From the sequence record NC_052656.1: a DNA stretch of 64,000 nucleotides. One strand, written 5' to 3'. This DNA comes from Escherichia phage anhysbys. A model generated the notes under the pieces. That model did no database searches. It was given only the letters and a program-made list of their open reading frames with translations, and had not been told where the DNA came from. Positions 21,485-60,075 of this stretch are shown here, in pieces; within the stretch, counting starts at the first letter, position 1; the number at the start of each line of letters is the position of its first letter. The position numbers and the translations under genes were made by a program.

Positions 21485-21853
21485 ATGAGCAAATCAGCAA
21501 TTAAAGCAGTTGAAAAAGCGCAAGAAGTGATCGCAACGTCTACCACTGGCGCAAAGGTTAATCTGATCGGTTATCTGACAGATGAAACTATCCGTAAAAA
21601 TTGGCGTAATGCTGATTTACTGGCTTGCTTATTGATTAATAGTGTCGCTAATGCTTTCCAGTGTGAAACAGCCGAGAGCCTGGAGGAAAACTTGTTTGAT
21701 AATATGGATCAAGCCATTGAAACCTATATACAATCAAACCTGGATAGCTGGAACAGTAAAACATGGCCAGACAGTTTACGCGATACAACTGATCAACTGA
21801 TCCGCCTTGCCGTGATGGTTGAACGCGATAACGTTTACAACAGCACAAAGTAA
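21485..21853 (+). CDS. hypothetical protein
   Basis: Track frame; start refined to MSKSAIKAVEKAQ after AAGAGGAAAAG; terminator downstream. Confidence 0.6.
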   Translation: MSKSAIKAVEKAQEVIATSTTGAKVNLIGYLTDETIRKNWRNADLLACLLINSVANAFQCETAESLEENLFDNMDQAIETYIQSNLDSWNSKTWPDSLRDTTDQLIRLAVMVERDNVYNSTK

Positions 21854-21861
21854 GATTATAC

Positions 21862-21890
21862 AAGGGGCGCACCAAGCGCCCTTTCTTTTT
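21862..21890 (+). terminator. rho-independent terminator (same sequence as 16980 copy)
   Basis: AAGGGGCGC-ACCA-AGCGCCCTT + TCTTTTT at end of plus array. Confidence 0.7.
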
Positions 21891-22097
21891 GCCCGAACAA
21901 TGTTGATAGCTTTCGCCTATGAAAAACCGACACAGAACAAAATTGAATAAATCGCGGTATCGAGCTAATCAACCATTAAACGAATAACCATACCTCCCAG
22001 GGTAACAGGCTGTTAGAGAGCCATTTATAGCGGTTAAAATCGATCAACAACCAACAACAAACCATCAAAAACACCCTTTTACCTCCTTTCTAGTGCA

Positions 22098-22539
22098 ATG
22101 ATAACCATTATCATCTACCCATGATTATCTATGCAATATAAGCGCATAATTATAATGTTGATAATAGTTCGCAACAACTAACCAACAAACAACATAAAAC
22201 AAGAAGCAAACTAATCATAATCAAAGGAATAATAGCAAGATGATTGATAACGACAAACAATCAAACCATGATGAATACTAAGCAAGATAACGATAACACG
22301 ACAAAACAACCAACTAACGAACAATAACAAACGAAACCATTAAAATAATAACTATTGCCATAATAGTGACTGAATGAAATCATTACAAAACGAATCATTC
22401 CCAGGATCATCATTAGCACGCTATGCCGGACACATAGCGAGCTAATAATAAGCCAACTACACCCCAACAATCATAACCATCGGTGATGGTTATTTCTTGT
22501 TACTGCGTAGCTTGCAATAATTGCAAGCGTAATTACGCT
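22098..22539. repeat. cluster of perfect palindromes in ORF-free region
   Basis: ATGATAACCATTATCAT (22098), ATAACCATCGGTGATGGTTAT (22474), GCTTGCAATAATTGCAAGC (22510), AGCGTAATTACGCT (22526). Confidence 0.5.
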
Positions 22540-50541: not shown

Positions 50542-51051
50542 TTAAACAAAATAAAATGGTTGAGAGAGGCCCAAACGATTCTTTGGGTCGTATACATACC
50601 AAGCGTATGCTGTTTTATCTGTTCCACCTGCAACAAACGAAGGCCGTTCTGAAAGGACTATAAGGTTTGTTGGTGGATTCTTTTGATGGAACTCTCGTCG
50701 TTTCTTTGACTCCAAGAAGCCCAACCGAAGAAGATAAATACAAACATCCGCCTCTTTTAAGCTCTTTTCCAAGAACTCCATTGCTAACTTAAATGGAGGA
50801 TTTGTGATTATAATGTCGGGACGATTTTCCCATTCATGACTAAAATAATCTTTACCTTCTTCAAGTTCGCAATATTCTGAACCTTCAGGAAAATGGCGAT
50901 AAATCGCTTCAGCTTCACCTCTGCAAGGTTCTGCAAAAACCCAACCTTCTTCCTTTAGATTTTTGAAATCTATAACACTAAACAAACTATTGATTGCTTT
51001 TTGCGGTGTCGGATAATAATCGCTCGTTGGGCGATCATAATCTAATGCCAT
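50542..51051 (-). CDS. putative DNA N6-adenine/N4-cytosine methyltransferase (small, NPPF motif)
   Basis: IIITNPPF catalytic tetrapeptide; YYPTP near N-terminus; 169 aa. Confidence 0.55.
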   Translation of the reverse strand: MALDYDRPTSDYYPTPQKAINSLFSVIDFKNLKEEGWVFAEPCRGEAEAIYRHFPEGSEYCELEEGKDYFSHEWENRPDIIITNPPFKLAMEFLEKSLKEADVCIYLLRLGFLESKKRREFHQKNPPTNLIVLSERPSFVAGGTDKTAYAWYVYDPKNRLGLSQPFYFV

Positions 51052-51469
51052 CTAAAATCTCCTCTTTTGTAATATTATCCAACTCTTTAAAGGATGAAAT
51101 CTCGTTTAATAATCCTATTTGATCAGCTTCTAGAGGATAAGTGTTTTTATCTGTTTTTCTAGACAGAATATCTTCAACAAACTTATCAATAGCCAAAGAA
51201 GAATCATAAAATTTTAAAAGTTGGTAATCCATAGGAGATATTTTGTCATCTCTTAGAAATATTTCTAACATGTTTTCAGGAGTATCATGGTTTAGTTTAT
51301 GTTCACCAAAAATATTAACTTCGTAAACATCTTTGCCAAACCAACGTTTCTTCTTTTCAACAGTATAGGTTTTTTCCACCAGACCATCTAAACAGTTTCT
51401 TGCCCTCTTACATGTTTGACGGTAAGAGTGGATAGCGCCTTCAACAAACTTAGCAGGAACTTGTAACAT
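51035..51469 (-). CDS. hypothetical protein
   Basis: ORF track 144 aa. Confidence 0.55.
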   Translation of the reverse strand: MLQVPAKFVEGAIHSYRQTCKRARNCLDGLVEKTYTVEKKKRWFGKDVYEVNIFGEHKLNHDTPENMLEIFLRDDKISPMDYQLLKFYDSSLAIDKFVEDILSRKTDKNTYPLEADQIGLLNEISSFKELDNITKEEILDGIRL

Positions 51470-51493
51470 TATTAATCTCCTATGTTTAAGAAA

Positions 51494-51509
51494 TGCCCCC
51501 GAAGGGGCA
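51494..51509 (-). other. intercistronic CUUCGG-type hairpin
   Basis: Minus-strand UGCCCC-UUCG-GGGGCA after HslV-like gene. Confidence 0.5.
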
Positions 51510-51514
51510 GTTTG

Positions 51515-52207
51515 TTAAATAGCGGTTCCTTCGAAATCCGCCACATTTACGAGATTAATATTTTCAGATTTAGAAGTCAAGTTGTTTTCTGCAACAGATT
51601 TTTCTTCAGTATCCGCCTCGTTACCTGCCACGTTACGAGGTTCTTCTTCACCGTAGGGATTACCGAATTTCAAAAGATTGATCAATTCTTCTTTGGAGAA
51701 GTTTTCTAAATCATCATCTGTTAATTCAATAATCTCGTCTTGTTCTTCAATAAATGTTTCACCACCAGAAAAAGCATCTCGCTTTTTAGCTACTTCCATA
51801 GCCTGTTCTGGTGTTGCTCCTGCATCAAGAGCAGCTAAAGCAAAGTCTGACCCGCTTCCTACCGCATAATATTCTTCATCAATCGGATATGCACGTGTTG
51901 GGTTGTTACCTTCGTGCAGGAAAATACGTCCGTCTGGATGAACAACAAGTGCAATAAACTCTTCATCTTCTTTATCTGGATCAGAGTGAATCATCAAACC
52001 AGGGACAGCATCACGTGCTGCTTCGCACTGTAGATTTTGTTCAAACCATTGAAAGAAAGAAAGCACGGAGGTCAGACGACCAGCACCACCTACAAGGTAA
52101 TCTCCAATTTTTCGGACCTTTTTGAAATTAATAGAATCTACACGTCCACCAAAAGTTACCTTACCGTCACTCAAAATCTTATTTTTGGTCGCAATAATTG
52201 TCGTCAC
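51515..52207 (-). CDS. HslV-like N-terminal-threonine peptidase with acidic C-terminal extension
   Basis: MTTIIATKNK (Thr after Met), KKVRKIGDYLVGGAG, YAVGSGSDFALAALDAG match HslV/ClpQ blocks from memory. Confidence 0.65.
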   Translation of the reverse strand: MTTIIATKNKILSDGKVTFGGRVDSINFKKVRKIGDYLVGGAGRLTSVLSFFQWFEQNLQCEAARDAVPGLMIHSDPDKEDEEFIALVVHPDGRIFLHEGNNPTRAYPIDEEYYAVGSGSDFALAALDAGATPEQAMEVAKKRDAFSGGETFIEEQDEIIELTDDDLENFSKEELINLLKFGNPYGEEEPRNVAGNEADTEEKSVAENNLTSKSENINLVNVADFEGTAI

Positions 52208-52710
52208 TATTCTTCCTCCTCTGTTAATGTTTTAAGAACCGCTTTCCCGCCATTCACATATTTGCAGATGTATTCTATCGCACGTAGTGTCTCTTTGTCA
52301 ACAAAAATTTGATCAGACGTTGCGAGCGGGTTATTAAGAAGATCACTGCAATCACGAACAAGCAGTGCTTTCTTATTAAACAAATTACTTAAGAACAGTA
52401 ACTTCGCCTCTTCTTCTGTTATGTGCAGAAGGCTAGGATCGGAGCCAGCTATTCCTATTATACAATCAAACAAGCTTTCTTTACTATCAGAAAGTTCTTG
52501 AAAATGGTTTAAAAGCCAATCTTCTCCTAGACACCAACATTTAAACATTTCCAGTTTATCTCGGAGGGTCATATTCTCTAAAGTAAGAGCAATCTCTTTT
52601 TCAATATGGTTTACACAAATTTGACGAAATTCGTTAGGTTTTACGAGTCCCGTTTGATAGCACTCATCTATACCGCTTCTTCCGATAGCTATTGTTGCTA
52701 CACCCATCAA
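52207..52710 (-). CDS. hypothetical protein
   Basis: ORF track 167 aa; ATGA-coupled upstream of HslV-like gene. Confidence 0.55.
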   Translation of the reverse strand: MMGVATIAIGRSGIDECYQTGLVKPNEFRQICVNHIEKEIALTLENMTLRDKLEMFKCWCLGEDWLLNHFQELSDSKESLFDCIIGIAGSDPSLLHITEEEAKLLFLSNLFNKKALLVRDCSDLLNNPLATSDQIFVDKETLRAIEYICKYVNGGKAVLKTLTEEEE

Positions 52711-52742
52711 TCCTCCTTATAAATGGCTTCCCTGCCACATTA

Positions 52743-53501
52743 TTAAATAAACACTTCAGTAATCAGTTTAGACAAACGTCCACGTTTATTATCGTCCGTT
52801 GTCAGTTCAACATATCCAATAAAATCTACAATTGGCTCACGAACACCTTCTTCATTCTCTGGATATAAAAGTTCCAAAATTTGATGCAGACCATTGCTAC
52901 GTTTTTTAATTGCATATGTCTGGCGAACATCGCCTAATACAATAACATGCGTATTAATACCTGCACGTTCAATAAGAAGTTTAAGTGTTTCTGTTGACAT
53001 AAGTTGTGCTTCGTCAATAATGACGATTGTATTATCCAGGGTAGCCCCCAACAAATAGTTAGGAATATTCAATTCGATCTTACCTGATCCAATATCGTTT
53101 TCCAATTTGTTGGCTGTCATGAATTGCTGGAAAATACGTTTTGTAGATTCATAGTGTGCTGCTAGTTTATCTGTTTTATCCCCAGACAAGAAACCAATCT
53201 GGTCATCTCCGACTTCAGTAGGGTTCTTGATAAAAAGTAGTTTACGGAAGTCTCCTGAACGAAGCATCTGCAAAGCTTTCCATAAAGCAACAGAGGTTTT
53301 ACCAGTCCCTGCCGGAGCATTTACAACAGTCAGATCATTCCAAATCATGCTTTGAACAATCTTATTTTGGTCCCCTTCAGGCATAAATTCATCTAAACGG
53401 TAATCGTCATTACCTACCGCTTTTGCTGCATAACGGCTTTCAATCTTTGCTGAATTAGCCAGTTTCTGCCGTTGTGTTTTAGCTGCGGTTTTATTTCCCA
53501 T
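52743..53501 (-). CDS. phoH: PhoH-like ATPase
   Basis: Walker A NAPAGTGKTS; Walker B VIIDEAQ; start refined to MGNKTAAKT (AAAGGAG RBS) to clear hairpin and lysozyme. Confidence 0.8.
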   Translation of the reverse strand: MGNKTAAKTQRQKLANSAKIESRYAAKAVGNDDYRLDEFMPEGDQNKIVQSMIWNDLTVVNAPAGTGKTSVALWKALQMLRSGDFRKLLFIKNPTEVGDDQIGFLSGDKTDKLAAHYESTKRIFQQFMTANKLENDIGSGKIELNIPNYLLGATLDNTIVIIDEAQLMSTETLKLLIERAGINTHVIVLGDVRQTYAIKKRSNGLHQILELLYPENEEGVREPIVDFIGYVELTTDDNKRGRLSKLITEVFI

Positions 53502-53518
53502 AGTAGCACTCCTTTTAG

Positions 53519-53536
53519 AAGGGGCCGAAGCCCCTT
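53519..53536 (-). other. intercistronic CUUCGG-type hairpin
   Basis: Minus-strand AAGGGGC-UUCG-GCCCCUU between lysozyme and phoH. Confidence 0.55.
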
Positions 53537-53538
53537 TA

Positions 53539-54039
53539 TTAGTTGTAAGCATCTAAAGTTCCAGAAGTCAGAACTTTAATTACTCGTTCAGCACGGTTTG
53601 GCGTCTGGCTATACCATCGGCTTTTACGCATGTTTTTACCTGCTTGAGTATAATATGCATTGCTGATTAAAGTCAAGCTATTTTGAAACCCTTCAGCACC
53701 TTTTAACCCCAACTGGAAAACCATGTTGATTATTCCCAATTTACGAGTATCACTAACCTTATCATAGATTGGTGATAAGATAGTACTGTTTTTTATGTCT
53801 CTCTTCACTTTTGCAACATCGTCAGCAAAGATTTGACGGGCTTCTTTTTCTGTGATAACTCCATTAGTCTTACGACCAAGAAGATTATCTAAGATTTGAA
53901 TAGCCTTTGCTTTATCTTTTATTTTAGTCAGAAGGTGTCCTATGCCGACTGTCCAATAACCAAGATGGTCTTGATAAACAGTAAGCTTCAGTCCTTCATC
54001 GACTCGTAGCATATCAAACTCATCTACTACTTTAGCCAT
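53539..54039 (-). CDS. T4-type lysozyme (endolysin)
   Basis: MLRVDEGLKLTVYQDHLGYWTVGIGHLLTK ... INMVFQLG ... KSRWYSQTPNRAERVI closely parallels T4 gene e. Confidence 0.9.
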   Translation of the reverse strand: MAKVVDEFDMLRVDEGLKLTVYQDHLGYWTVGIGHLLTKIKDKAKAIQILDNLLGRKTNGVITEKEARQIFADDVAKVKRDIKNSTILSPIYDKVSDTRKLGIINMVFQLGLKGAEGFQNSLTLISNAYYTQAGKNMRKSRWYSQTPNRAERVIKVLTSGTLDAYN

Positions 54040-54201: not shown

Positions 54202-54462
54202 TTACTCCGCAATTTGAGCCATGAGATCACGCAGTTCGGTAAAACCGCCTACGTATGTTACCTCCCCGTTCACTTCAGACAGAATTTGTGGAAATGTGCG
54301 TGGAGGAACTCCGGTAAGATCAACAACTGTTTTAGTCATTGATTCTAAATCATAGTCTTGATCAAGACTTAAATATTCAAACTGTTTATTGCGCATGGTT
54401 AATAGTTGTTTTGACATTTCGCAAAATTGACAGTTAGGTTTACCAAAAATTACAAATTCCAT
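54202..54462 (-). CDS. glutaredoxin/NrdH-like redoxin
   Basis: CQFC active site near N-terminus (FGKPNCQFCEMSK); 86 aa; adjacent to nrdAB. Confidence 0.75.
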   Translation of the reverse strand: MEFVIFGKPNCQFCEMSKQLLTMRNKQFEYLSLDQDYDLESMTKTVVDLTGVPPRTFPQILSEVNGEVTYVGGFTELRDLMAQIAE

Positions 54463-55304
54463 TACCTCTCCTTATTAAGTAATACTGCTAAAGACTGTTC
54501 AATACCTTTATTTAAATCTGATTTTGTAAGATAGTGACTGGTTACTAATTGTGACTTCACCGGACGTGCTGCTGGAGCATTATAGGTTGAAGCTGATACC
54601 GCCGATATCTTAACAGGTTCTGGCATCTGTGTCAAGATCTTTTCCGCAAACTCCGCCCAAGAAATAAAATGGCTTCCTGCAAAATGGTAAGTCTTAACAG
54701 ACCTTGACCAACCTGTTTTTAATACTTCAAAAATAGCTTCTGCTAAATCTGGAGCATATGTTGGACAAGAGAACTGATCAGCAACAACAATAAAATCACG
54801 TTGTCCATCATTATAGCGAGACAACATGGTTTTTAGAAAGTTATTTCCAAATTCGCTATATACCGAGGCTGTTCGAATAATATATGCATTTGGGTTAACT
54901 CCTCGCACCATTTTTTCACCGAGTTCTTTCGTATACCCATAATTGTTTATTGGGTTAGGTGTAGTATCTTCAAAAATAGGATGAGAATAATTAAAAATAT
55001 AATCTGTAGAAATATGCACAAAATCAATTTTAAGTTTGCTGCACACTGCCGCAATATTTGCAGGTCCATACGCATTAACAGCCAAAGCAGTAGCAAAATC
55101 ATGTTCTGCTTTATCTACAGCCGTATAAGCAGCGCAGTTAATAACACCGTCTACATAATCTTCAACAATAGCGTTTCGCACAGCTTCAAAATTTGTAATA
55201 TCTACACGTTCTTTAGGATAAATTAAAGATACATTCGAAGGAACCACTTTACGTAAAGCTTGTCCCAGTTGTCCATTACCACCTAATACCAGATATGTTA
55301 GCAT
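54462..55304 (-). CDS. rmlD: dTDP-4-dehydrorhamnose reductase-like (RmlD family)
   Basis: N-terminal Rossmann LVLGGNGQLGQAL; 280 aa; overlaps rmlC by 7 nt. Confidence 0.75.
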   Translation of the reverse strand: MLTYLVLGGNGQLGQALRKVVPSNVSLIYPKERVDITNFEAVRNAIVEDYVDGVINCAAYTAVDKAEHDFATALAVNAYGPANIAAVCSKLKIDFVHISTDYIFNYSHPIFEDTTPNPINNYGYTKELGEKMVRGVNPNAYIIRTASVYSEFGNNFLKTMLSRYNDGQRDFIVVADQFSCPTYAPDLAEAIFEVLKTGWSRSVKTYHFAGSHFISWAEFAEKILTQMPEPVKISAVSASTYNAPAARPVKSQLVTSHYLTKSDLNKGIEQSLAVLLNKER

Positions 55305-55864
55305 ACACCCTCACTACGTAGCTGTTGAAAAGATTTAGCCATTGCATCTTTTGTTGATAAAATAGGTTTAAAATCTTCATCAAAAATCATATCAAAGCCC
55401 CAATCGATCCCTATATCAGGATCATCCCAACGTAAACTTTGTTCACTAGAAGGGTCGTATGGAGTTGTGCATTTGTATTCAAAGATAGCATCCATACTCA
55501 AAACTATAAAACCGTGTGCCAAACCAGGTGGAAGCCAAAACTGCGTATGGTGTCGTGCACGAAGAACAACACCGTCCCAAGCACCGTAAGTTGGACTATC
55601 TTTACGTAAATCTACAGCGAAATCCAATACTTCTCCACTTACACAACGAACAAGCTTACCTTGCGGGTTGTTTGTTTGGAAGTGCATTCCTCGCAAAACA
55701 CCGAAGTTTGATTTAGACATGTTATCTTGAACGAAAGTTTGTCTACCAATAATATCTTCGTATTTTTGTTCATTGTATGTTTCTAAAAAGAAACCACGAT
55801 CATCTTTATAAACGTCTGGTTTGATAATTACCGCACCTTCAATTTTTGTTTTTTCTACTTTCAT
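55298..55864 (-). CDS. rmlC: dTDP-4-dehydrorhamnose 3,5-epimerase (RmlC cupin)
   Basis: DDRGFFLETY, LRGMHFQ, KLVRCVSGEVLDFAVDLRKDSPTYG, PPGLAHGF match RmlC. Confidence 0.85.
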   Translation of the reverse strand: MKVEKTKIEGAVIIKPDVYKDDRGFFLETYNEQKYEDIIGRQTFVQDNMSKSNFGVLRGMHFQTNNPQGKLVRCVSGEVLDFAVDLRKDSPTYGAWDGVVLRARHHTQFWLPPGLAHGFIVLSMDAIFEYKCTTPYDPSSEQSLRWDDPDIGIDWGFDMIFDEDFKPILSTKDAMAKSFQQLRSEGVC

Positions 55865-55873
55865 TTTCTCTCC

Positions 55874-56200
55874 TTACCAGACATGTTGAGAAATAATAGT
55901 TTCCGTTTTAATGTTATATTTTTCAAGTAGCTCTGCATAGGCTTCTTTTGCATTCTCATTTAATTGCTCAAGATCTACAGCTACGCTTCCTTCTCCGCCT
56001 TCTAAATAAATACCATATATGCAATAAGACTCATCAGCATCGTAGAAAGGAGAGATGCGACTTAAGTCCAGACCTTCTTGTAAGAACCAGTTAAAATCTC
56101 CGTCAAATTCTTCTTCAATTCTAGGATCTTCTCCTACAGCCTCTTCCCACTTATTAAAAGGTGCACCCTGTAACATACGCCATTCGATATCAATACCCAT
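55874..56200 (-). CDS. hypothetical acidic protein
   Basis: ORF track 108 aa. Confidence 0.55.
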   Translation of the reverse strand: MGIDIEWRMLQGAPFNKWEEAVGEDPRIEEEFDGDFNWFLQEGLDLSRISPFYDADESYCIYGIYLEGGEGSVAVDLEQLNENAKEAYAELLEKYNIKTETIISQHVW

Positions 56201-56354
56201 TTTTCATCTCCTCCTCTTCTTGAGCAGCTTTAATAATTGCTTCATAAATATCGTAAGCAATGCCTCCACAACATCTAGCTTCGAAAGCTATTGCTTCTGC
56301 AATGTGGTCTGTTAATTCTCGTGGAATTCGGACATACTCTTTTTCACTCTCCAT
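56190..56354 (-). CDS. small hypothetical protein (~54 aa)
   Basis: Own translation MESEKEYVRIPRELTDHIAEAIAFEARCCGG...; GGAGG RBS. Confidence 0.35.
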   Translation of the reverse strand: MESEKEYVRIPRELTDHIAEAIAFEARCCGGIAYDIYEAIIKAAQEEEEMKNGY

Positions 56355-56496
56355 CTTCTACCTCCGACCCTGCTTTTTCAAATACTACTACTCGTCCTTC
56401 ACCATGACAATTCAGGCAAGGAAATGTTACCATAATTTCCACTTCCATCTGTCCAGTCCCACCACACACAGGACAAAAAATAAGTTTTTCAGCCAT
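56344..56496 (-). CDS. small zinc-ribbon protein (~50 aa)
   Basis: Own translation MAEKLIFCPVCGGTGQMEVEIMVTFPCLNCHGEGRVVVFEKAG...; AGGAGGAA RBS. Confidence 0.4.
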   Translation of the reverse strand: MAEKLIFCPVCGGTGQMEVEIMVTFPCLNCHGEGRVVVFEKAGSEVEDGE

Positions 56497-56705
56497 TATT
56501 CCTCCTTAATTATTTCAAACTTGGCAACACCATTTACAATAATATGACCACAAGACATAACTCCTAGCCAAGGATCGCCGTTTTTCTTCAGGCGTTTACC
56601 GAATACATCACAAAAACCATTCTTCATTTCGGAGGCTTCATAAGAAGCCCCTTTGTCAAAAACGTCTTTGAATGTGTCGATTATACCAACACATCTCAAA
56701 ATCAT
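56496..56705 (-). CDS. hypothetical protein
   Basis: ORF track 69 aa; immediately downstream of nrdB. Confidence 0.5.
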   Translation of the reverse strand: MILRCVGIIDTFKDVFDKGASYEASEMKNGFCDVFGKRLKKNGDPWLGVMSCGHIIVNGVAKFEIIKEE

Positions 56706-57790
56706 TAGAAGTCAAGCTCCTCATCATCAGAGAGATCTTTGTTAGCTGAATTCAATTTGTAATTAGTTAACTGAATCTCTTGGGCTGCTGACTGAATCAA
56801 ATCAGGATTCAACCATTTTTCCATCCAAGCTAAAGGACTATGTTTAGGTGCTTTAAACTTGGCTTTCATTTTCAATCGACGATAAATAGGAGCAGCATTG
56901 AAATAAACCCACTGTTTAGACAATTCGGCGTTAAGACCTACAATAAAACGACCTTCACTAAACAGGTAGTCACACCACTGTTCCTCTTGTTCAACAACAG
57001 TGTCGAGGATCAAAGTCAACTCTTCAATATTGTCTTCGTAAATTTTACGCCAAATTGGGTCATGCATCAATGCATCAATTACAGCATAATCCATCTTAAC
57101 ATGCAAGATTTCATCTAGCATAATTTTCTGGATCAGCTTACAAGCCCCAACAAACAATTGTTGTTCTGCCATAGCAAAAGTAGCAGAGAAGGAAGATATA
57201 AACTGAATACCTTCTAATCCAATCAGGGCTACCATCCCTTTAAGAATCAGCAATCGAAGTTCATCGTTAGCTTCAATCAATCCTAGAGCATACTTATGAC
57301 CAGCTTCTTCCAACTGACCCATGATATCAGCAATGATACCCATACGATTGAAAATTTTATCATTAATCATAATCTGATTGATGACTTCAATTGGATCTGG
57401 AGTACATTGACGGATTATTTCAGAATACGTTAACGCATGGAGAACTTCCATTTCACTCTGCTTCATCATCATAGCACAGGCTTCATTGTTACTCAAGAAT
57501 GGAGAGAACAAAGTGATGATTGATTTTGCAAGAGAATCATTTTCCCATTGGAACGATAAGTTTTTAATCATAACATCATAGTTGTTTTTAGAACAAGCTA
57601 CGAAATCTTTACGTGTCTGATCCAAGTTAACTTCGTTTTCATCCCAATCTTGTGCTTTTTGAAGTTTGTAGAGTTTGTGCATTTCTGGATAAGTTACGTT
57701 AACAGAATCAAAGATCCCTAATTGCTCCCCCAAAAATACTGGATATTTTCCTGTTTTGTAAACTTCGTTGTGTAAATTAATTGCTGCCAT
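56705..57790 (-). CDS. nrdB: ribonucleotide reductase class Ia beta subunit
   Basis: Di-iron/tyrosyl radical blocks EMEVLHALTYSE and DEILHVKMDY; 361 aa. Confidence 0.9.
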   Translation of the reverse strand: MAAINLHNEVYKTGKYPVFLGEQLGIFDSVNVTYPEMHKLYKLQKAQDWDENEVNLDQTRKDFVACSKNNYDVMIKNLSFQWENDSLAKSIITLFSPFLSNNEACAMMMKQSEMEVLHALTYSEIIRQCTPDPIEVINQIMINDKIFNRMGIIADIMGQLEEAGHKYALGLIEANDELRLLILKGMVALIGLEGIQFISSFSATFAMAEQQLFVGACKLIQKIMLDEILHVKMDYAVIDALMHDPIWRKIYEDNIEELTLILDTVVEQEEQWCDYLFSEGRFIVGLNAELSKQWVYFNAAPIYRRLKMKAKFKAPKHSPLAWMEKWLNPDLIQSAAQEIQLTNYKLNSANKDLSDDEELDF

Positions 57791-57810
57791 TTAAAATTCT
57801 CCTCAATAAA

Positions 57811-57827
57811 AAGGGGCCGAAGCCCCT
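57811..57827 (-). other. intercistronic CUUCGG-type hairpin
   Basis: Minus-strand AGGGGC-UUCG-GCCCCU + UUUUUAUU between nrdA and nrdB. Confidence 0.6.
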
Positions 57828-57834
57828 AGTTTCA

Positions 57835-60075
57835 TCACATCTTGCAAGCTTCACAACCACCATCAGAATCTTCTTGTGCTAAAGAGTCTGCTGATTTTGT
57901 TCTACTATTAAGGTAATACAACGACTTACCACCCAGTCTAGCAAAATTCAGAATAAACTGCATCTCAGCTTTCACTGATAAACGTCCACCTACCAATTTA
58001 GAATAATCTAGCCAAGAATCACAAGAAATTCCTTGGTCCGTAAACTTGGTAAAGATACCATACATTTCTGCAAGGTCTTTAGCAGGAGTGTCCCAGGCGG
58101 ACTGGTAGAACATTTTCAGTTTTTCGTAGTCTGGAACAATAAATAATACACTACCTTTCTGACTTTGTTTATACATAATAGTATCACGAACAGGATACAG
58201 AGAGTTAGTAGTATTGCTTACCAAACTGCTGGACTCATTAGGTGCGATAGCAGCCAAGACACTGTTACGGATACCACCTTGTTCAATGATTTCAGCACGT
58301 AAGCCTTCCCAATCCATTTTAAGATCAAAATTACCGATACTATCTACTGTTTTAGCATAAGTGTCAATTGGTAGCCAACCTTGAGGCCATTTGGTCTTAT
58401 CGATCCATTCCGCATTACCTTTTTCCTTAGCCAGACGCAGAGAGGCTTTTGCCAACCAAAAGTAATGACGTTCTGCAAGTTCATGCATTAATTTTTTAGC
58501 ATAAGCATCTGAATAATTTACAAAATTACTTGCCAAGTAATGTGCTAAGTTTGTAATACCTACACCAATAGATCTACGTGCTTTAGCAGTTATTTCGTTA
58601 TGTTTAAATGGATAATCCATTGTTTCAATAACGTTGTCAATTGTCAATACAGTGTAGTATGCAACATCCTCATATTCTTCAGGTAAGACACGACCAGCAA
58701 CAATAGAAGATAAGAAGCATAAAGCCAATTCTTGATCTTCTGTATTCTCACCAGTAAAGAGATCCGGCATACTGTGGAAAGCTTTAGTTGGTAAGAAGAT
58801 CTCTTGACACAGGTTTGATTGATACACCGTATCCAGGAAAGGTGTATGGTTGTTAACGTTGTCCGCAAAGAACATGTAAATACGTCCTGTTTCTGCACGT
58901 TGAACAATAATCTCTGTCAGAAGATCACGAGCCTTAACAAATTTTTTCTTAATGCGACGACGGCTTACTTTGTCATAAACTGCATCAAACTCTTCTTCAC
59001 TTTTATACAAAGCTTCATAAAGTTCAGGAGCATCATCACAACTAACTAACATCCAATCTTCGTTTTTTGCTGCTCGACGCAAGAACGAACGGTTAACAAC
59101 AATAGAATAATCCAGTTTGTCTACTCGTTTATCTATAGGTGTTGTTGGATTCTTCAGTCGAATCAGATCGTCGAAGTCTGGTTCAAGTATGGTAAAGGTA
59201 ACTGTAGCACTACCTCCACGGCTTGCTTGCTTCGAAGCTCCAACACTATCTTCCATCCATTTCAGATACGGAAGAAGACCACCATGAATAATACGATTAT
59301 TCTTAACACCTTGACCTGTGGCACGAGTTTGAAGATTAACACCAATACCTGCGTTATTCAACGTATACTCATGAGCTAAGTAATTAGCAATGGCTAAAGA
59401 CTCTGCTGTGTCATCTGCACGGAATAAACAACAAGACGCACTTCCTTTGATTGGAGTTCGTAGAGTTGTCAGATATGGTGATGGCAGATTAATCTTAAGA
59501 TCGCTAACATAAGTATACAGTTTTTTAATATCTTCTATACGGCGTTCTTTTGGTTGGATCTCCATAACCTTCATTGCGATACCAATGAAAAGAAACTGTG
59601 GAGACTCATGCACCACATCGTTTACTGCATCTCGGATAAGATATTTATCCACCATCTGACGTAAAACAGAATAGCCATAAGTTAGATTTTTATTATGCTT
59701 TACAATCTTACCAATTTCTTTGATCTCTTCATCAGTATAATCCATTTTAGCCCAATGTCCACGTTCTACCATATCATGATAAAAGGTATTCAGTGAAGGG
59801 ATACTGTGGTATCCCCCATGAGCCTGTTTGTAAATCATACCCAGAAGAAGTCTTCCTGCCATATCACTGTAAGCTTGTGTTTTCTTGTCAATACACGCTG
59901 CAATCATTGCTTTATGCAGATCACGTGTAGACACACCGTCATAACACCGCTTCACAGCTTCTAATTCAATTTCAGACCAGTTTAGTTTACCTGCTGCAAA
60001 TTCAGACCACTTGCGAAGTTTTTCTGGATTAAACTCCTCTATCTTACCGTTAGATTTAGTTACAAAACGAATCAA
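57835..60075 (-). CDS. nrdA: ribonucleotide reductase class Ia alpha subunit
   Basis: 746 aa; N-terminal ATP-cone-like region, C-terminal Cys pair; paired with nrdB. Confidence 0.9.
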   Translation of the reverse strand: MIRFVTKSNGKIEEFNPEKLRKWSEFAAGKLNWSEIELEAVKRCYDGVSTRDLHKAMIAACIDKKTQAYSDMAGRLLLGMIYKQAHGGYHSIPSLNTFYHDMVERGHWAKMDYTDEEIKEIGKIVKHNKNLTYGYSVLRQMVDKYLIRDAVNDVVHESPQFLFIGIAMKVMEIQPKERRIEDIKKLYTYVSDLKINLPSPYLTTLRTPIKGSASCCLFRADDTAESLAIANYLAHEYTLNNAGIGVNLQTRATGQGVKNNRIIHGGLLPYLKWMEDSVGASKQASRGGSATVTFTILEPDFDDLIRLKNPTTPIDKRVDKLDYSIVVNRSFLRRAAKNEDWMLVSCDDAPELYEALYKSEEEFDAVYDKVSRRRIKKKFVKARDLLTEIIVQRAETGRIYMFFADNVNNHTPFLDTVYQSNLCQEIFLPTKAFHSMPDLFTGENTEDQELALCFLSSIVAGRVLPEEYEDVAYYTVLTIDNVIETMDYPFKHNEITAKARRSIGVGITNLAHYLASNFVNYSDAYAKKLMHELAERHYFWLAKASLRLAKEKGNAEWIDKTKWPQGWLPIDTYAKTVDSIGNFDLKMDWEGLRAEIIEQGGIRNSVLAAIAPNESSSLVSNTTNSLYPVRDTIMYKQSQKGSVLFIVPDYEKLKMFYQSAWDTPAKDLAEMYGIFTKFTDQGISCDSWLDYSKLVGGRLSVKAEMQFILNFARLGGKSLYYLNSRTKSADSLAQEDSDGGCEACKM

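Follow-up and report, generated by a model that had tools for sequence, protein, structure and literature searches.

Proteasome homologues and the phage peptidase

The bacterial peptidase HslV (ClpQ, MEROPS T1B) forms a double hexameric ring, and the ATPase HslU is usually encoded in the same operon. Among the homologues of the proteasome, PPH and RPC are the only ones without helix H2; PPH constitute a phage branch, consist of about 140 residues and have no C-terminal elements, whereas their RPC relatives carry a C-terminal extension (Fuchs, Alva and Lupas 2021, PMC8665760). According to the same survey, members of this superfamily have C-termini which point outwards from the ring and are potential interaction sites; short pore loops are linked to rings regulated by an unfoldase, and unregulated rings are linked to long acidic loops, as in BPH, for which activity without an unfoldase has been proposed (PMC8665760). 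Here, we describe a gene of Escherichia phage anhysbys (sequence record NC_052656.1) located in a stretch of 64,000 nucleotides, which is referred to as the window. The coding sequence lies on the minus strand at positions 51515..52207, begins with GTG, ends with a TAA stop codon (51515-51517) and encodes a predicted proteasome-like (PPH-type, 'HslV family') threonine peptidase of 230 residues, termed the peptidase in the following. Since the family profile PHROG 1040 matches residues 1-229 (E = 1.6e-63) and homologues occur in 232 phage records, the open reading frame is a real gene and not a chance one. A comparison with RefSeq, which already names the protein "peptidase HslV family", showed that the product is identical to HOV53_gp078/phAPEC8_0094.

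We consider it probable, with a rough probability of 0.6, that the product is a catalytically competent N-terminal-threonine peptidase of the PPH phage branch, having an accessory role which does not depend on HslU. As judged from the published description and from its similarity to forms of about 140 residues, the peptidase is a proteasome homologue of the PPH type which carries a C-terminal extension, and not an HslV.

Relation to described families

With PPH and RPC the peptidase has in common the features of a group I proteasome-like homologue in tailed phages, namely the missing propeptide, the Thr/Asp/Lys triad and a compact core which, by prediction, is devoid of helix H2; as in RPC, there is extra C-terminal sequence, for which an orientation away from the ring is expected. 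It differs from the PPH of about 140 residues in consisting of a 155-residue core with a longer acidic loop plus an extension of 75 residues, and it differs from RPC in being phage-borne, while the listed RPC are proteobacterial only. A core and an extension of these lengths fit the description of RPC better than that of PPH; by sequence, however, the protein grades into forms of 137-156 residues.

Structure prediction, which an earlier note on this DNA had suggested as a check, was performed with AlphaFold2 (AF2). The model of the monomer has the sandwich fold of proteasome β subunits and HslV, with values of the predicted local distance difference test (pLDDT) above 90 across most of the core. 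A long helix H1 (residues 45-67) is followed by an acidic, proline-containing coil (residues 68-83, DAVPGLMIHSDPDKEDEE), which replaces helix H2. In a comparison of the model with solved structures by means of Foldseek, HslV, archaeal 20S β subunits and BPH scored about equally (about 1e-10, probability 1.00).

Among solved proteins, HslV is the nearest to the peptidase by sequence and fold. It shares with the peptidase the Met-Thr-Thr start, the KKVR context of Lys33 and the Gly-Ser-Gly motif, and the closest solved proteins in a search with the single sequence were HslVs (T. maritima, 4.9e-9). When a profile of 50 sequences was compared with the PDB, HslV again came first (6e-16), followed by proteasome β5 (1.7e-10). 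The Pfam family Proteasome (PF00227; MEROPS T1) was matched with 25.6 bits at a cut-off of 22.4. In contrast, the models which define HslV equivalogs were missed by far: the peptidase reached 32.2 bits with NF003964 (cut-off 137) and 31.4 bits with TIGR03692 (cut-off 157.75), and the identity to E. coli HslV is only about 22-25%. Further differences from HslV are the absence of H2, the long acidic loop, the C-terminal extension and the lack of an adjacent hslU gene. Thus, the term "HslV-like", which the earlier note had used, holds at the level of the superfamily, as this is an N-terminal-threonine peptidase with HslV as the nearest solved relative, and fails at the level of the family, as 32 bits compared to a cut-off of 137 do not signal an HslV orthologue.

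The relation to the short phage forms was assessed by searching 1.84 billion representatives with the family profile, which gave 62 clusters at E<=1e-30. The top matches are tailed forms of 183-350 residues; these grade into many forms of 137-156 residues that start with Met-Thr-Thr. A profile deduced from 57 forms of at most 160 residues, which had themselves been chosen with the family profile, assigned 138.6 bits to the peptidase (residues 1-151) and 52.6 bits to E. coli HslV; in this alignment, the H2 segment of E. coli HslV becomes an insertion. Homologues were also found in 44 IMG/VR loci, and 47 viral entries of the structure library BFVD have the same fold. The eight commonest organism groups, which account for 213 of the 232 phage records, all infect Proteobacteria, as would be expected of PPH or RPC from tailed phages or prophage regions of Proteobacteria; the remaining records belong to 11 further groups.

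Two other systems have to be compared. BPH of Thiobacillus denitrificans (PDB 5ovs) is likewise a stand-alone protein with a long acidic pore loop, is not known to have an unfoldase and gave a fold match of about 4e-10, which equals that of HslV. On the other hand, H2 is retained in BPH, whose double rings are heptameric, the TM-scores with the peptidase are lower (0.51-0.55), and BPH is not among the best 60 of 146 profile matches. The same fold (BFVD) is also found in the HslV-like proteins of jumbo phages, which occur in pairs with HslU-like ones (Erwinia phages Ea35-70, Special G and Simmy50, Salmonella phage SPAsTU). These phages encode an HslU-like ATPase, whereas Phapecoctavirus and its relatives do not.

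Catalytic core

The catalytic core comprises residues 1-155 (51743..52207, minus strand) and contains Thr2, Asp14, Lys30, the GGAG motif (residues 40-43), Gly117-Ser118-Gly119, and Asp144-x-x-Ser147-Gly-Gly. In 50 diverse relatives, Met1, Thr2, Thr3, Ile4, Asp14, Lys30, Gly117, Ser118 and Gly119 are invariant, and GGAG as well as Asp144, Ser147, Gly148 and Gly149 are conserved to at least 90%. Among the database representatives examined, about 90% keep the catalytic residues, and 131 of the 145 newly returned ones start with Met-Thr-Thr. An alignment pairs the residues of the peptidase with Thr1, Asp17, Lys33, Gly45-48 and Ser124/129 of HslV and the proteasome. Equivalents of Thr1, Lys33 and the glycine-rich loop are therefore all present; their absence had been named in the earlier note as an observation that would speak against an HslV-like peptidase. 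The motifs it had listed (MTTII, KKVRK, GGAG and YAVGSGSDFALAALDAG) are likewise all contained in the open reading frame of 230 residues, which reads (V/M)TTIIATK at its N-terminus. E. coli HslV has GDICIYT in place of Asp-x-x-Ser-Gly-Gly, a motif which we take to correspond to the Asp166/Ser169 motif of 20S β subunits.

A methionine preceding a threonine is removed by bacterial methionine aminopeptidase. As the peptidase has no propeptide and starts directly with Met-Thr-Thr, its nucleophile Thr2 would be exposed without autoprocessing, as is the case in HslV. The conservation of the catalytic residues favours catalysis and argues against a dead decoy.

The C-terminal extension

An acidic C-terminal extension of roughly 55 residues had been noticed in the earlier note. 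It is indeed foreign to HslV; its length, however, is about 75 residues (156-230), of which only the part from about 184 to 230 is predicted to be disordered. The extension has 20 acidic and five basic residues and a net charge of -15. For the phage family it is usual, as the PHROG 1040 profile reaches residue 229.

Two parts can be distinguished. The first is a two-helix motif (residues 160-183 approximately, IELTDDDLENFSKEELINLLKFGN; 51659..51730, minus strand), for which AF2 predicts helices at 164-169 and 172-181 with pLDDT values of 91-94. Its element [ST]-K-E-E-L-hydrophobic is kept in homologues from Klebsiella, Vibrio and Aeromonas phages at 34-48% identity. The second is the disordered acidic end (residues 184-230 approximately; 51518..51658, minus strand) with pLDDT values of 45-58 and a column conservation of 0-4 on a scale of 9; its sequence and length vary even among close relatives. 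Other clades add 40-220 further residues including unrelated C-terminal domains, and short forms have no extension. A Pfam search identified no known domain in the extension of the peptidase or of its relatives. These data suggest that the extension serves docking or targeting as a modular arm, which in this phage would be reduced to the conserved motif and an acidic remnant.

We also considered that the tail sequence DDDLENF might mimic the activator DEDLSRFIL of HslU. Relatives have TKEKAEGM, SEEDIKAM or TREVAENL at this site; this idea was rejected, because only the following S/T-K-E-E-L is conserved, which is internal and not a free C-terminus. At their C-terminus, many tailed homologues carry a motif of about 35 residues, L..L...LGI......K..L...I, which is absent from the anhysbys peptidase and not recognized by Pfam; by our own reading of the sequences, it looks like a helix-extended-helix element.

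HslU, PhoH and orf166 as possible partners

The earlier note had stated that no HslU-like ATPase is adjacent, and this is in agreement with our searches: none was found in the window or in a further 50 kb taken from a genome with 99.7% identity, and 48 related loci had none at a distance of up to 6 kb from the homologue. A tblastn search with E. coli HslU gave 164 phage records, and such genes are present in Erwinia and Salmonella jumbo phages; at most four of the 164 records are labelled Escherichia, none of them among the best 30.

It had further been suggested that the peptidase might hijack the HslU of the host. In HslV, the helix pair H1/H2 forms the apical face and the pocket for the C-terminus of HslU, which in the E. 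coli protein is reported to be held by Phe54, Phe57, Ala79, Lys80 and Gln114 (PMC6429459). The residues aligned with these are Leu, Phe, Met, Ile and Tyr, and the positions of Ala79 and Lys80, i.e. Met and Ile, fall in the segment which AF2 predicts to be non-helical. Because H2 is absent from the model and two of the five residues contacting the HslU tail lie in this segment, docking of host HslU is less likely. The hijacking idea is thus weakened by the HslV score, the missing H2 and the long acidic loop.

The gene directly upstream, orf166, was regarded in the earlier note as a possible partner or adaptor. In 20 out of 20 loci of the Stephanstirmvirinae type, orf166 directly precedes the peptidase gene, with junctions ranging from an overlap of 4 nucleotides to a gap of 37. 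At 28 other peptidase loci (Vibrio, Aeromonas and short-form), a profile search with E-values up to 10 found no orf166 homologue. Hence, orf166 is a clade-specific neighbour and not a general partner, and the proposal has lost ground. The predicted fold of orf166 is confident and mainly helical; a structure comparison found no solved relative of it.

As for PhoH, a P-loop ATPase, all 27 loci with a tailed homologue have its gene upstream on the same strand, and all 21 tail-less loci lack it there. The only support for pairing an ATPase or adaptor with the peptidase is genomic, namely this distribution. Shared ancestry is the simpler explanation, as all tailed loci stem from related large myophages. 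We therefore regard it as very unlikely that the two-helix motif docks PhoH or orf166, which are encoded in the same unit, in a self-contained phage proteasome which degrades selected host proteins during takeover without HslU; this would be a new kind of ATPase/adaptor-peptidase pair.

Proposed role and alternative explanations

In the mechanism that we propose, the methionine aminopeptidase of the host would expose the nucleophile Thr2, and the subunits would assemble into stacked rings. Within infected cells, peptides or unfolded proteins may be cleaved by these rings, which would need no AAA+ partner of their own; such a mode of action has been proposed for BPH. The extension would point away from the ring and act as a docking or targeting module, which is swapped for other domains in relatives. 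The role would be an accessory one, such as host takeover or protein recycling, and not essential.

In the deposited genome of phage VEcB (NC_052663.1/MT932211.1, positions 21498-22298), residues 1-115 of PhoH are fused in frame to residues 63-217 of the peptidase. Through the underlying deletion of about 1.2 kb, the orf166 homologue is lost together with the remaining part of PhoH and the catalytic threonine. As the deletion runs across the unit in a sequenced and viable phage, the peptidase gene and its unit appear to be dispensable.

Several points weigh against a HslU-independent accessory peptidase of the PPH branch. The hosts of 213 of the 232 records are Proteobacteria, which are known to carry HslU, so that its use is conceivable, and the H1 residue matching Phe57 of HslV is conserved. 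The gene is intact in OZ035773.1, a second VEcB record, so that an error of assembly could account for the deletion. All fold data come from the AF2 model of a single chain (pLDDT 86); ring assembly and the position of the extension are extrapolated. The PPH assignment relies on the description of PPH and RPC plus the likeness to the forms of about 140 residues, and the way in which the 57 short forms were selected has to be borne in mind. In the 2021 survey, RPC, the relatives with an extension, are listed as bacterial only (PMC8665760). Finally, our literature search found only mentions in genome notes and this bioinformatic survey, with no characterization of a PPH and no experiments on a phage member; among the papers in the library searched that cite the survey, the sole one mentioning phages is an unrelated ESCRT study.

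An obvious alternative is that the protein substitutes for HslV, forming double hexameric rings which are fed with substrates by docked host HslU, so that the ATP-dependent proteolysis of the host is redirected. Among solved proteins, HslV gives the best match to the sequence and to the profile, the propeptide-free Met-Thr-Thr start is that of E. coli HslV, H1 is partly conserved with a Phe matching Phe57, the listed hosts (213 of 232 records) are all Proteobacteria, and a phage without an unfoldase would need that of the host for any ATP-dependent activity. Nevertheless, we judge this explanation unlikely, considering scores far under the HslV equivalog cut-offs, the predicted loss of H2 together with the Ala79/Lys80 segment, where Met and Ile are aligned, a long acidic loop in place of the short pore loop of HslV, and a short-form profile which prefers the peptidase to E. 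coli HslV by 138.6 to 52.6 bits. It is less probable still that we are dealing with an N-terminal nucleophile (Ntn) enzyme of non-degradative chemistry, i.e. a processing peptidase, an amidase or a ligase like connectase, which acts on a few recruited targets. The superfamily holds such enzymes and its divergent members may lack closed rings (PMC8665760); moreover, the C-terminal modules differ between clades, which suggests target recognition, and no unfoldase partner is present. However, the S3/S4 lid insertion, which is the signature of connectase, is missing, the protein keeps all catalytic residues of the proteasome type, with Asp-x-x-Ser-Gly-Gly among them, and no candidate substrate is evident.

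The earlier note had also raised the possibility of a decoy, and one might imagine an inhibitor that titrates host HslU or poisons HslV rings via its surface or its acidic end. A disordered acidic end could mimic a substrate or nucleic acid, and the peptidase is an early/middle accessory gene of the phage. This idea conflicts with catalytic residues that are invariant in 50 relatives and kept in about 90% of the database representatives; in addition, no part is less conserved than the acidic end, and an identity of about 22-25% to E. coli HslV is too low to make mixed rings likely. We consequently hold a decoy to be highly improbable. Being a phage-encoded protease, the protein might lastly be thought of as the prohead protease of capsid maturation, a role to which we give practically no credence: in a related genome, a gene for an S78_2-type protease sits between the portal and the scaffold/major-capsid genes in the opposite arm, and this separate protease of the head module excludes the candidate. 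The peptidase gene, on the contrary, is found among genes for PhoH, lysozyme, glutaredoxin, Nrd and methyltransferase, and the viable VEcB carries a deletion of the Thr1 end. The S78_2-type gene of the head module, HOV53_gp277 (NC_048196.1, 63491-63970), is named 'DNA methyltransferase' in RefSeq with a note citing Peptidase_S78_2; it sits between the portal and the scaffold/capsid genes and is most likely a misnamed prohead protease.

Gene start and transcription unit

According to its sequence, the window belongs to the genus Phapecoctavirus, i.e. to phAPEC8-like E. coli myophages of the subfamily Stephanstirmvirinae. In this region, the identity to Escherichia phage vB_EcoM_Schickermooser is 99.7%; another 62 phage records, most of them labelled Escherichia, reach at least 95%. 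Over positions 51000-53600, Campylobacter phage B15, Acinetobacter phage vB_AbaM_ABPW7 and Klebsiella phage ZCKP1 are 99.5-100% identical; the host labels of these three records look doubtful for a genus of E. coli phages.

The start codon of the peptidase, taken as ATG in the earlier note, is a GTG (52207-52205), so that the N-terminus reads (GTG)Met-Thr-Thr-Ile-Ile. Most relatives have ATG at the same position; in the 27 related loci examined, Thr comes directly after the start in all 27, Thr-Thr in 26, and a Shine-Dalgarno sequence lies upstream. In anhysbys, this is GAGGAGG (52215..52221, minus strand), 7 nucleotides 5' of the GTG and within the 3' end of orf166. The gene hslV of E. coli K-12 (RefSeq coordinates) likewise starts with GTG followed by Thr-Thr. 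Two homologues are annotated from internal starts, which mask the Met-Thr-Thr and hence the nucleophile: that of vB_EcoM-Ro121c4YLVW begins at an internal Met (159 residues), and CcrColossus gp057 is given as 131 residues instead of 141. A missed GTG or upstream ATG is probably the reason for both short annotations.

The upstream gene orf166 (phrog_14834) extends over 52207..52707 on the minus strand, encodes 166 residues and ends with TAG. At the junction, which reads TAGTG, stop and start codon share the central G, so that the overlap amounts to 1 nucleotide and is not the ATGA proposed previously. The alternative start codon TTG at 52710, which gives the 167 residues of the earlier note, is only 1 nucleotide away from the core of its Shine-Dalgarno sequence. 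For this reason, the ATG at 52707, as in RefSeq, is the most likely start of orf166.

The PhoH-like P-loop ATPase gene (52743..53501, minus strand; Pfam PF02562, E = 1.2e-36), whose start is the ATG at 53501 as in RefSeq, is the first of three genes, and the peptidase gene closes this PhoH-orf166-peptidase unit. Five nucleotides past the peptidase stop codon, a terminator-like GC-rich hairpin (TGCCCCTTCGGGGGCA; 51494..51509, minus strand) is followed by TTTCTT; its folding energy is -15.3 kcal/mol (z = -2.3). A second GC-rich hairpin (GGGGCTTCGGCCCC, 53518-53537) lies between the lysozyme stop and the PhoH start. It was rejected as a terminator, as the coding strand has no T-run, and could be an element of RNA processing or stability. 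A scan for sigma-70 promoters performed no better than with shuffled sequences. PADLOC models of defence and anti-defence systems identified nothing for the peptidase, orf166 and orf144; PhoH gave only generic helicase matches.

The order of genes on the same strand is glutaredoxin, a small open reading frame, T4-type lysozyme, PhoH, orf166, peptidase, orf144 and DNA methyltransferase, and this nucleotide-metabolism/replication arm of the genome also contains ribonucleotide reductase, thymidylate synthase, ligase and exonucleases. The glutaredoxin-lysozyme-PhoH block is closely preceded, at about 54462-58000, by a full set of genes for dTDP-rhamnose synthesis (rmlA/B/C/D-like); the set is already annotated in phAPEC8-like genomes, and its position in the window was deduced by correspondence with a related genome.

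Significance

The gene and its family are already part of public annotation and literature, and they do not constitute a new kind of system. What our analysis adds is a refined annotation, in which the member of the "HslV family" becomes a homologue of the PPH type whose C-terminal motif is conserved, and two handles, namely the PhoH-orf166-peptidase unit and the natural VEcB deletion. With 232 records, phage-encoded proteasome homologues are common. Should the peptidase need no unfoldase, or rely on a new partner, this would illustrate how large lytic phages reshape the proteome of their hosts, and it would add a simple, propeptide-free model for the evolution of the proteasome.

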